Assembly (NCBI GenBank): GCA_900553755.1
Contig: USEX01000002.1
Location: forward strand, 16,339-80,338
Direction: 5' to 3'
Source: an uncultured Clostridium sp.
GTDB lineage: Bacteria > Bacillota > Clostridia > TANB77 > CAG-508
Length of the DNA: 64,000 bases
Part shown: piece by piece, positions 52,246 to 59,770 of the stretch
Position numbering within the stretch: position 1 is the stretch's first letter
Layout of the letters: each line of letters starts with the position of its first letter
Translations under genes and position numbers: made by a program
Notes under the pieces: model-generated
What the model was told of the DNA's origin: nothing
Databases searched by the model: none
What the model saw: only the letters and a program-made list of their open reading frames with translations

Positions 52246-52275
52246 TTGATATTTCGACTGTTTTTATGCTATAAT
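52246..52275 (+). promoter_or_regulatory. Sigma-A promoter (extended -10) of the NRPS gene
   Basis: TTGATA (52246..52251), an 18-nt spacer, then TGCTATAAT (-10 at 52270..52275). RBS AAGGTGA lies 5 nt before the ATG at 52322. Confidence 0.65.
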
Positions 52276-52321
52276 GAAAAAGTGATACAAATAAGGAATA
52301 TTAAAAAATTAAGGTGATTAT

Positions 52322-58300: not shown

Positions 58301-59770
58301 CCAAAATATATTGCCCCACGAAATGATTTTGAAAAGAATTTAGCATTTATTTGGTCTAAATTATTAGGAATTAAAAAAATCGGAATAAATGATAATTTCT
58401 TTGAAATTGGCGGTGATTCACTTTTAGCAATAAAATTCCAACTTGAAGCTGTTAAATTAGGATTAAATATTTCGTACTCAGATATATTTACATATCCAAC
58501 AATTAAACAATTATCAGAAAAAAACAATGATACAAATAATTCAGTTGATATATCAAATTATGATTATACTAATATATCTAATTTATTAGAAAAAAATAAT
58601 ATAAAAGATATTAATAAAATAAATAAATTAAAATCAAATATTGGAAATATATTACTTATTGGAGCAACAGGATTTTTAGGCGCACATATTTTAGATGAAT
58701 TTTTGAAAACTCACACCGGAGTTGCTTATTGTTTAATTAGAGAAAAATCATTAACCTCTCCAAAAGAAAGGCTAAAAGATACTTTAAACTTTTATTTTGG
58801 AAAAAAATATGATGATTATTTTGATAAGAGAATTATTGTAATTACTGGAGATATAACAAATGCGAAATTTACATTGTCTGAAAGTGAACTACAATATTTA
58901 GCTCAAAATATAACTACAATTATTGATTCTGCCGCTTTAGTAAAGCACTTCGGTAGCTACCAACATTTTTATGATATAAATGTTAATGGAACTAATAATA
59001 TTATAAATTTTGCCCATAAATATAATAAAAAATTATATTATATTTCTACATTAAGTGTTTCAGGAAATAGTTTTGACGAAACAAAAGAAATTCAAAAATT
59101 TGATGAAACAAACTTTTATATTGGTCAAGATTTTAGTAATGTATATATTCACACTAAATTTGAAGCAGAAAAATTAATTTTGGAAAAAATTCAAAGTGGC
59201 TTAGATGCTTGCATATTGAGAATTGGAAATATTACAAATAGATATTCTGACGGAGTATTCCAAATAAATGTAAGCGAAAATGCTTTTGTAAACAGGTTAA
59301 AATCATTATTAGCAATGCAAGTAATTCCAGAAAAATTATTAGAGCATTCTGTTGAATTTACCCCAGTAGATACCTGTGCTCAAGCAATAATAAAAATTGC
59401 AGATTCAAATCCAGAGTTTACTGTATTCCATTTATTTGATGATAATACAATAACTTGCAAAAAACTTTTGGAAATATTAAATTCAATTGGAATAAATATA
59501 AAGCCTGTATCTGATGAAGAATTTAAAAATAGTATTAATACATTTTTAAATAATAATAGTCTATCAGATAATATATCTGGAATTATCACTGATTTAGATG
59601 ATAATAAATCTTTAAATCTAATTTCAAATGTTATTCCTGTTTCAGACTTTTCTAAAAAATATTTAAACATTATTGACTTTAATTGGCCAATGATTGATAA
59701 TAATTATATTAAAAAATATATTAATTATTTTATAAACATAAGATATTTTAATGGAGGAAAAAATGACTAG
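52322..59770 (+). CDS. Bimodular nonribosomal peptide synthetase, C-A-T-C-A-T-R (terminal thioester reductase)
   Basis: 2482 aa.
- C1: HHLLADSW (about 52715).
- A1: LTYGDLNKKANQLA, YTSGSTGKPKG (about 54134), YGITETT, GEMCVLG, YHSGDLA, GRMDKQVKLRGFRVELGEIE, NGKVD.
- T1: FFELGGDSLSA (Ser codon 55307..55309).
- C2: HHIVMDGTS (about 55853).
- A2: YTSGSTGKPKG (about 57244), NGYGPTETT, GELYITG, YKTGDLA, GRNDSQVKISGHRIELSEIN, NGKIDK.
- T2: FFEIGGDSLLA (about 58409).
- R: GATGFLGAHIL (about 58661) and YIHTK. Confidence 0.95.
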   Translation: MNKVLYDLTNPQKNIWITEQYYNGNPINNICGTVYIKEKLDFQKLVHSVNILINTHDNFKIKISTTENTVKQYFVNDLNYTADIVDIANEDELTSYEDNFAKQILSISDNQLFEIKIFRFPNSHGGVIVKMHHLLADSWTFGLICKQIVDTYYKLIHDIEIPENTYSYKDYIDKELQYMKSDSFIKDQEYWNNLFTTVPELATIPSTSYRKVSKVSCSANRKEFNIPKNIMDQINKFCKTYKISVYNFFMSIFSIYLSRVSNLDNLVIGTPILNRTSFSDKNTNGMFVSTVPFLINIENNSSFYEFTQKISKDSLSMLRHQRYPYQKLLEDLRQKDSSLPNLYSVILSYQITRTVNEYMDCATHWTFNGTVADDLQIHIVDYSNSGSLNILYDYSVPKYCDRDIVDTHNRILFMIEQILANEAIPVKDIEIVTEDEKNELLYKINKPNIGFPKNKTIVDLFEEQANVTPNNIAVSFNDESLTYGDLNKKANQLARYLLNNGVKKGNVIGIRVDKSFEMIVGILAIIKAGCTYLPINISYPQERVEYMLSDSGAKFLLTVDSMVDAIITTIPKLCIDLNKTNIYSLDSTNLGISISPEDLIYIIYTSGSTGKPKGAMLCHRNVVRLFKNDSPLYDFGENDVWTMFHSVAFDFSVWEMYGALLFGGRLVLVPDKVAKDANLFLDLLRKEHVTVLNQTPTYFYNLLATESERADNNLSIRYIIFGGEALKPKLIQKWIIKYPTTKLINMYGITETTVHVTFKELTEKDLKSNVSNIGKPIPTLEVLILDKNLHMLPYGVPGEMCVLGQGVFKGYLNREDLNAQKLIPNSYYGETLYHSGDLAILHKDGNLEYLGRMDKQVKLRGFRVELGEIEELILKNENIKTCIVAKKVNKNNRDILCAYYTKSANINIDSIKKSLQVDLPYYMIPQYFIEIDKVPMNINGKVDINSLPIPDEVYHDKEIIKARNQIDNIIIKAFRKVLGIKQISIEDSFFELGGDSLSAISICTYINETSNLNISVKDILETPIIKDLSDSLVQNTTSTNFDKIQHVDEMELYPTSSAQKRIYYACKMSTEDSLVYNTPGALLINSILDAKKVQNCFEEIIQKQPSFRTIFILDNGELKQKILDKVNFNIETNNNTEKNINNIINTFSKPFDLEKSPLLRVQLCYLDNEKTLLLFDSHHIVMDGTSLHILIDEFCKLYNDDTISPLSIDYKDYSIWENSLISSDKIKNIENYWINKFKDSEIPSLNLPYDYPNPTTPSFVGNRLIKNLDNELIKKINILANELQVSPYMIFISAYFILLYKYTGQNEIIVGTPFANRNISETNNIIGMFVNNLCVDAKIDSNISFVEFLNNIKDQILSDIDNGFYPYDLLIKKLNIPNNTQLFNTMFTYQNTASNKFIINGTEAKLIPANLNIAKFNLSFEINPTEKYFNIEYRTDLFNHNSIERLFNHYINILNNFLNNKNILIKNINMLDNSEEKYILNNFNNNKLDFPENSTLVSLFKNIVKTNGNKIAIETDNDSITYNELDKKSTALANRLISQGLKPHEVVGVCLNRSIELLISIWAILKANCIYMPMYVGYPEDRLSYMLLNSDASLLISNTNLANKIEFTKKKEILDNYKDIADYSEDLNIKYSPTDPAYIIYTSGSTGKPKGVIISNKNLINFIYNFNYLFNNKLNNNDTFLAATNISFDVSIWELFLPILNGCKLFLYSEEIIRDIIKYCNNIIKYRITGLYIPPNILDDVYNILKDSENIYINKLLVGVEPIKKSTLNNYFNLNKELQIVNGYGPTETTICSTALKYELDNSNDDIVSIGHPLSNNNAYIVNVDKQLQPIGIPGELYITGAGIGLGYINNDKENRKNYLQNIYDTSSDRMYKTGDLALWLPDGKIKFIGRNDSQVKISGHRIELSEINSMIMKYPTINKSFTTIYTKNSKKYIVAYYTSNKEVPKTDLFAFLKNKLADYMIPTFLMQIDEFPLTVNGKIDKANLPTSFIVSRPKYIAPRNDFEKNLAFIWSKLLGIKKIGINDNFFEIGGDSLLAIKFQLEAVKLGLNISYSDIFTYPTIKQLSEKNNDTNNSVDISNYDYTNISNLLEKNNIKDINKINKLKSNIGNILLIGATGFLGAHILDEFLKTHTGVAYCLIREKSLTSPKERLKDTLNFYFGKKYDDYFDKRIIVITGDITNAKFTLSESELQYLAQNITTIIDSAALVKHFGSYQHFYDINVNGTNNIINFAHKYNKKLYYISTLSVSGNSFDETKEIQKFDETNFYIGQDFSNVYIHTKFEAEKLILEKIQSGLDACILRIGNITNRYSDGVFQINVSENAFVNRLKSLLAMQVIPEKLLEHSVEFTPVDTCAQAIIKIADSNPEFTVFHLFDDNTITCKKLLEILNSIGINIKPVSDEEFKNSINTFLNNNSLSDNISGIITDLDDNKSLNLISNVIPVSDFSKKYLNIIDFNWPMIDNNYIKKYINYFINIRYFNGGKND

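Follow-up and report, generated by a model that had tools for sequence, protein, structure and literature searches.

A two-module nonribosomal peptide synthetase from an uncultured gut Clostridium, predicted to make an N-acyl dipeptide aldehyde and encoded in a conserved unit with a sensor kinase

The stretch of DNA analysed here (the window) comprises 64,000 nucleotides of contig USEX01000002.1 (positions 16,339 to 80,338; assembly GCA_900553755.1) from an uncultured Clostridium sp. It carries on the forward strand (52322..59770) a gene for a 2482-residue nonribosomal peptide synthetase (NRPS), in which condensation (C), adenylation (A), carrier (T) and reductase (R) domains follow one another in the order C-A-T-C-A-T-R. 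Comparison of its sequence with those of characterised enzymes suggests that it is probably a working two-module NRPS of the gut-Clostridia type, and that its product would be the linear aldehyde N-acyl-L-threonyl-L-methioninal, a reversible covalent protease inhibitor. The NRPS gene heads a conserved unit of three genes, followed by those for a sensor kinase of the 7TM type and a REC-HD-GYP regulator.

Domain architecture and substrate codes

The NRPS is encoded by a single open reading frame (ORF) with all catalytic motifs intact. Pfam searches located two Condensation, two AMP-binding, two PP-binding and one NAD_binding_4 domain, with E-values ranging from 1e-170 to 1e-22. Their order agrees with the positions of the motifs HHLLADSW (residue 132), FDFSVWE (649), FFELGGDS (989), HHIVMDGT (1178), FDVSIWE (1688), FFEIGGDS (2026), GATGFLG (2114) and YIHTK (2275), which bears out the C-A-T-C-A-T-R arrangement that an original prediction, made from the letters of this DNA, had read in one ORF. 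The same prediction had noticed the GGDS serine of both carrier domains, and we located it in T1 (55214..55426) at Ser996 (55307..55309) and in T2 (58319..58531) at Ser2033 (58418..58420). An ORF of 7.4 kb in DNA of 26% GC is not a chance event. Across the whole gene, the ratio of nonsynonymous to synonymous substitution rates (dN/dS) is 0.08 against a 96% identical relative and 0.135 against a 79% relative; the per-domain values of 0.05-0.22 indicate purifying selection in all seven domains. The GC content of the gene (0.22-0.28) resembles that of its flanks (0.24-0.27), as had been claimed for its composition. A pseudogene or silent relic is ruled out by the intact ORF and a dN/dS of about 0.1, and a recent horizontal arrival by the flank-like composition together with a locus that is syntenic across a clade.

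The ten Stachelhaus positions of each A domain were read from a MAFFT alignment to a GrsA fragment, which was verified to be identical to residues 234-526 of 1AMU. A1 (53684..55171) has the code DFWNIGMVHK, the canonical Thr code, which is listed as a Thr/Dhb code in PMC12283262. A2 (56804..58276) has the code DVWYLGGICK, identical to the Met code of BN712_00198 (CDE97356) from Clostridium sp. CAG:567, which appears as Met(3) in the supplement of PMC12283262. In the same paper, the product of BN712_00198 is given as N-octanoyl-Met-Phe-H and the code of its second A domain, DMVLQGGACK, as Phe. At a related locus (L004), which is syntenic with that of the window, both codes match the Met and Phe codes of BN712_00198 at nine of ten positions. 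Altogether, A1 is predicted to activate Thr and A2 to activate Met, in line with the earlier expectation that the two modules use different amino acids.

The R domain (58634..59767) is a thioester reductase of the short-chain dehydrogenase/reductase (SDR) type, with an NAD_binding_4 match at 9e-50 over residues 2113-2356. Comparison against the PDB gave 218 bits for Mru_0351-R (6VTJ), 164 bits for AusA-R (4F6C) and 103 bits for MxaA-R (4U7W), and the alignments to Mru_0351-R and AusA-R span the full length of the domain. The triad Thr2243 (59048..59050), Tyr2275 and Lys2279 is kept, together with the Rossmann motif GATGFLG (58661..58681), the threonine of STxS and the YxxxK motif (YIHTK, 59144..59158); these motifs are conserved across the family. 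The terminal thioester reductase of the original prediction, including its catalytic Tyr and Lys, is thus confirmed.

The two C domains differ greatly from each other, with an identity of only 24% (81 bits). C2 (55469..56761) is plainly LCL-like as judged from its sequence: it matches the solved C domains of TycC6 and LgrA with 266 and 173 bits, respectively, and keeps the HHxxxDG motif (HHIVMDGT, 55853..55876). C1 (residues 1-440, 52322..53641; HHLLADSW at 52715..52738) occupies the starter position; its Condensation match begins at about residue 4, no carrier domain precedes it, and the next gene on the 5' side is divergently oriented. Both domains were scored at 282 C-domain sites in unrelated NRPS loci, where C2 scored higher than C1 at 253 sites. 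By contrast, the three top sites of C1 all lie at the very start of NRPS ORFs: L065 (ORF from 4965; 222 bits with C1 and 50 with C2), L046 (ORF from 10001, 6732 residues; 193 and 100 bits) and L038 (at the start of the match; 123 and 53 bits). The N-terminal fragment P0264, named at its source as a fusaricidin synthetase, likewise scored 219 bits with C1 and 126 with C2, whereas the internal C sites of other NRPSs are closer to C2 than to C1. The alignments of C1 to the Paenibacillus C domains of P0264 and L046 extend over the whole domain, at 27-29% identity (193-219 bits). By these matches, C1 appears closer to C domains that open other NRPS genes than to elongation C domains.

Further analysis of a 73-member family alignment revealed the C1 motif [HN]H[LI][LI][AS]D[SA]W, in which neither the catalytic second His nor the Asp varies and Ser or Ala replaces the Gly throughout the family. 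The HHxxxD motifs reported earlier are therefore present in both C domains, and the Ser in place of Gly in C1 is a family-wide trait rather than decay. The dN/dS of C1 against the two relatives is 0.12 and 0.15, similar to that of the other domains. As a protein query, C1 alone retrieved fragments only, and no protein named CAG:567 was among them. The original proposal that a leading C domain suggests N-acylation has gained support, from the starter-like character of C1, its invariant catalytic residues, its constraint, and the N-octanoyl product of the enzyme with the same Met code; the acylation step itself is still one that we infer.

Predicted product and its alternatives

On the basis of this architecture, we propose the following route. 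Both carrier domains would be primed by a phosphopantetheinyl transferase (PPTase) encoded elsewhere. A1 would load L-Thr on T1, and the starter-type C1 would N-acylate it with a fatty acyl-CoA or an acyl-acyl carrier protein from primary metabolism, while A2 would load L-Met, or a similar unbranched hydrophobic residue, on T2. The LCL-type C2 would then condense both into N-acyl-Thr-Met-S-T2, and the R domain would release the chain with NAD(P)H as a C-terminal aldehyde, N-acyl-L-threonyl-L-methioninal. Pfam shows no Condensation stretches in the protein besides C1 and C2; an epimerisation domain is therefore absent, and the prediction for both residues is the L form. The product should stay linear, because an acylated amine cannot attack the aldehyde, and it may inhibit cysteine or serine proteases in a reversible, covalent manner. 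The N-acylation, the chain length, the aldehyde rather than the alcohol, and the target are the parts of this route that we infer from sequence and from relatives.

Such a compound would present a P1 methioninal like that of ALLM, a synthetic inhibitor of calpain and cathepsin. Peptide aldehydes of gut Clostridia reportedly inhibit host proteases, and this locus adds a predicted Thr-Met member to them. The 7.4-kb gene would be a large investment for a small genome, if the genome of the host is small.

Several points weigh against this proposal. All matches of C1 to solved C domains are weak, and the LCL domain of TycC6 (94 bits) ranks above the starter domains RzmA-Cs (61 bits), SrfAA-Cs (46 bits) and CDA-C1 (38 bits), so that the PDB ranking by itself leaves the subtype of C1 ambiguous. 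The assignment of Met to A2 derives from one characterised enzyme and from colinearity. The sequence of an R domain cannot yet tell aldehyde-forming, two-electron enzymes from alcohol-forming, four-electron ones (PMC8024701). Neither a PPTase nor an acyl-activating enzyme nor an exporter was found in the 64-kb window, where the check for a PPTase was a crude motif regular expression only. Moreover, many family members give non-acylated pyrazinones when expressed heterologously, as far as secondary sources report.

The last point leads to another possible product. If C1 were skipped or inactive, free H-Thr-Met-H would be released and would cyclise and oxidise spontaneously to a 3,6-disubstituted pyrazin-2(1H)-one, which is the outcome for AusA and for many clusters of the gut family. 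The C-A-T-C-A-T-R arrangement has been described as the canonical pyrazinone architecture (PMC10979478), the gut dipeptide aldehydes were isolated mostly as pyrazinones according to secondary accounts, AusA provides the best NCBIfam model for this NRPS, and Asn replaces the first His of the C1 motif in 14 of the 73 family members. However, C1 is constrained to the same degree as C2, retains its catalytic His and Asp without exception, and groups with C domains in the starter position. The AusA model itself scores below its cut-off, and its alignment does not begin until residue 367; moreover, an N-octanoyl aldehyde is the product of the enzyme whose Met code is the same as that of A2. Reviews citing Guo 2017 state that N-acyl tails stabilise the gut dipeptide aldehydes. 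We consider a pyrazinone an unlikely alternative to the N-acyl aldehyde.

The conserved kinase and HD-GYP locus

The gene for a sensor histidine kinase with HisKA_7TM, PAS, HisKA and HATPase_c domains (59763..61577, forward strand) follows the NRPS gene directly; its ATG at 59763 overlaps the stop codon of the NRPS gene by 8 nt, with a GGAGG 5 nt upstream, and no terminator-like site was found between the two genes. The REC-HD-GYP response regulator (61740..62793, forward strand) comes next. On the other side, a gene for an HtrA-like serine protease (Trypsin_2 and PDZ; 50968..52128, reverse strand) diverges from the NRPS gene at a distance of 193 bp; beside a gene predicted to yield a protease inhibitor, this protease might serve as its target or confer immunity, or the proximity might have no functional meaning. 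The statement that no PPTase, MbtH, tailoring enzyme or exporter gene lies beside the NRPS gene holds, for the PPTase as far as a crude motif regular expression can show, whereas the overlapping kinase and the regulator had been overlooked. In a sigma-70-like scan of 50800..64000, the top site was a promoter-like consensus match at 52246..52275 on the forward strand (TTGATA, 18 nt, TG-TATAAT; 11 of 12 matches, with an extended -10 TG), and an AAGGTGA ribosome-binding site lies 5 nt 5' of the NRPS ATG. Position 52246, which had been taken as the start of the feature, is not coding but is the first base of the -35 hexamer, 76 nt 5' of the ATG.

A 1-nt insertion near 62352 breaks the reading frame of the regulator. 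The insertion is common to independent assemblies of the 96% relatives and absent in the 79% and 51% relatives. The frame 3' of the insertion remains under strong purifying selection: 22 differences are synonymous and four nonsynonymous (pN/pS 0.046), and the five that precede the first Met are all synonymous. In the +1 frame, a TAA stands immediately 5' of the site (62345..62355), and the first possible start codon comes no earlier than 62473. The site itself reads, in the zero frame, CGG, a very rare codon that accounts for two of the 13,065 codons of the ORFs in the window. This pattern suggests less a dead gene than a candidate for programmed +1 frameshifting at AUU-CGG-U, or for slippage in the A5 stretch.

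Protein searches revealed ~70 C-A-T-C-A-T-R relatives of 2460-2504 residues, nearly all from metagenome or Logan assemblies, as well as three-module relatives of ~3510 residues. The nearest cluster, at 96% identity, has 150 member sequences, and a scan of representative genome contigs gave no relative above 51% identity. The relatives come from human-gut metagenome-assembled genomes (MAGs) titled uncultured Clostridium sp. or Clostridia. The NrdD encoded in the window shares 88% identity with its counterpart in Clostridium sp. CAG:780, and contigs bearing close NrdD relatives reach 1.46-1.6 Mb. The host is therefore a low-GC gut Clostridium, apparently uncultured and probably with a small genome.

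Gene order is shared by relatives with NRPS identities of 96, 79, 62, 51 and 48%: HtrA-like protease (reverse), NRPS (forward), HisKA_7TM-PAS kinase (forward), REC-HD-GYP regulator (forward) and Tex (reverse), except that the contig of the 62% relative ends within the kinase and the 48% relative has no HtrA. A tblastn search found this arrangement in about 20 MAG loci. HtrA lies 5' of the NRPS gene in most related loci, though not in L090; the kinase stands directly after the NRPS gene in every family locus whose contig extends that far, including L006, where the regulator and Tex have been relocated. Between loci, the synthetase is the more diverged, with an NRPS identity of 40-50%, compared to 53-89% for the kinase core, 70-97% for REC and 62-80% for Tex, and the A-domain codes vary widely, including Thr/Met, Thr/Gly, Thr/Val, Gly/Gly, Met-like/Phe-like and others. 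At five orthologous loci (L027, L029, L030, L053 and L072) the enzyme is a single-module C-A(Thr)-T-R protein of 1431 residues, and at one (L001) a three-module NRPS. The single-module loci also carry a kinase with another sensor, consisting of a transmembrane part, an extracytoplasmic region and HAMP, with 12-17% identity to the 7TM-PAS sensor of the window, while their kinase core (53-69%), REC (76-83%) and Tex (62-79%) are orthologous. The NRPS of a further locus (L087:1545-10783) is a mosaic, in which C1 is 76% identical to that of the window, R is 43% identical and A2 has a Gly code, which indicates that module 2 and R were exchanged. In its kinase, the first 80 or so residues have 28-55% identity, followed by a recovery.

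These patterns suit another possible role for the product, namely that it is mainly a self-made signal, sensed by the 7TM kinase and acting via HD-GYP on cyclic di-GMP, with protease inhibition as a secondary effect; the chemistry could be the same. The overlap of the NRPS and kinase genes would favour it, as would the persistence of the pair through the rearrangement of the regulator and Tex in L006, the different sensor of the single-module loci beside an orthologous core, REC and Tex, and the coincidence in L087 of the module 2/R swap with the drop in identity at the start of the kinase. However, the loci are all orthologous, and adjacency may be inherited rather than selected. Sensor domains in general evolve fast, a recombination tract running from the NRPS gene into the 5' end of the kinase gene would produce the same pattern, the single-module clade may reflect one event, and independent pairs with the same codes are few: a comparison of sensors with A codes contained only two same-code pairs within a matched band of Tex identity, and was underpowered. 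The locus patterns fit a functional NRPS-sensor unit, but also recombination tracts reaching from one gene into the next. We consider a main role in signalling unlikely. Its extension is similarly unlikely: the NRPS and the kinase sensor might form a co-diversifying signal-receptor pair, with the aldehyde or its cyclised form as an autoinducer read by the kinase, which would in turn govern cyclic di-GMP turnover via the HD-GYP regulator, and with changes of module number (one, two or three) and of sensor at one fixed chromosomal site as strain-specific "dialects" of gut Clostridia with small genomes. A literature search on the pairing of NRPS and kinase found nothing relevant. The coupling to the kinase and HD-GYP regulator and the variation of module number at one locus offer a testable lead on the native role of the gut aldehydes.

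The region upstream of HtrA holds different mobile content in relatives, where an integrase and a restriction-modification system stand instead, and is therefore an integration hot spot. In the window, 36000..48100 holds two related remnants of mobilisable elements, adjoining genes for tRNA-Arg and tRNA-Pro (35713..36011). At the DNA level, identity is 70-74% between their RepA_N-like genes (36312..36878 and 46844..47560); the members of a second gene pair (39045..39410 and 47720..48085) share 80% identity. The same region has a tyrosine integrase (45164..46546) and a putative relaxase (39343..40665, called by eye only). Beside mobile-element genes, two ORFs on the reverse strand (43175..44095 and 49667..50668) have a common C-terminal CK(H/N)CGR(P/F)F motif, and one of them matches DUF6076. 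Elsewhere on the reverse strand, Sigma70 region 4 and the C-terminal domain of RNA polymerase alpha occur together in one ORF of 546 residues (18478..20118), which is an unusual combination. Very large surface-protein-like ORFs of 746, 1384 and 1640 residues (SpaA, SdrD_B and DUF11) lie together with a VWA-domain protein at 306..16475 (reverse strand), and may represent an adhesin or pilus cluster.

Comparison with known systems

Among solved reductases, the best match to the R domain is the peptidyl carrier protein (PCP)-R didomain of Mru_0351 from Methanobrevibacter ruminantium (6VTJ), which has the same STxS and YxxxK residues. Mru_0351 is an archaeal NRPS whose product is unknown, and the comparison is limited to its terminal didomain. 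The R region (58634..59767) may point to genes having passed between methanogens and gut Clostridia. A four-electron reduction by this domain would give N-acyl-Thr-methioninol, which lacks the warhead and hence would not inhibit proteases; the alcohol-forming MxaA-R and Mtb-R share its fold and triad, sequence does not reveal how far the reduction goes (PMC8024701), and the match to MxaA-R is significant (103 bits), but the aldehyde-forming AusA-R scores higher (164 bits) and the characterised family member gives an aldehyde, which makes the alcohol improbable.

Judged by its sequence, the NRPS very probably belongs to the dipeptide-aldehyde family of gut Clostridia (Guo et al. 2017), in which CDE97356 was compared through its A-domain codes and its description. 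Three traits of this family are found in the NRPS: C-A-T-C-A-T-R in a single protein, an SDR-type R domain with a Rossmann motif and a Thr/Tyr/Lys triad, and a host among gut Clostridia. The family is already published; the new elements here are a product predicted to consist of Thr and Met, and the conserved association with genes for a kinase and an HD-GYP regulator. As described in its source, BN712_00198 likewise comes from a low-GC gut organism of the "Clostridium sp. CAG" type, has two modules and makes an N-acyl dipeptide aldehyde, as predicted for the NRPS of the window. They differ in order and residues: the Met domain sits in module 1 of BN712_00198 and in module 2 of the window NRPS, and the remaining residue is Phe in second place (DMVLQGGACK) in the former, compared to Thr in first place in the latter.

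The aureusimine synthetase AusA (PznA) of Staphylococcus aureus has the same A-T-C-A-T-R core as the window NRPS and frees its dipeptide aldehyde by reduction, as predicted for that NRPS; the two R domains are homologous (164 bits to 4F6C). However, AusA has no N-terminal C domain, and for this reason its product cyclises to a pyrazinone; in addition, its residues are Val and Tyr/Phe instead of Thr and Met. The NCBIfam equivalog model of AusA (NF047350) scored 1491.7 bits, compared to a curated cut-off of 2500, and its alignment covers residues 367-2472, leaving C1 without a counterpart. With this score below the cut-off and no C1 in AusA, the NRPS was rejected as an AusA orthologue.

The ruminopeptin (rup) pathway of Ruminococcus bromii also leads from an NRPS of gut Clostridia to dipeptide aldehydes, whose active form is the aldehyde (Schneider and Balskus 2018, as cited in PMC12327764). 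It was set beside the window NRPS by that description, and differs in its lineage and in its residues. The lipoinitiation modules Cs-A(Thr)-T of Paenibacillus (P0264, and the 6732-residue NRPS of L046) share with the window NRPS an N-terminal C domain followed by a Thr-type A domain. They are the first modules of long lipopeptide assembly lines that terminate in a thioesterase, and the name of P0264 is that of its source annotation rather than an assayed function.

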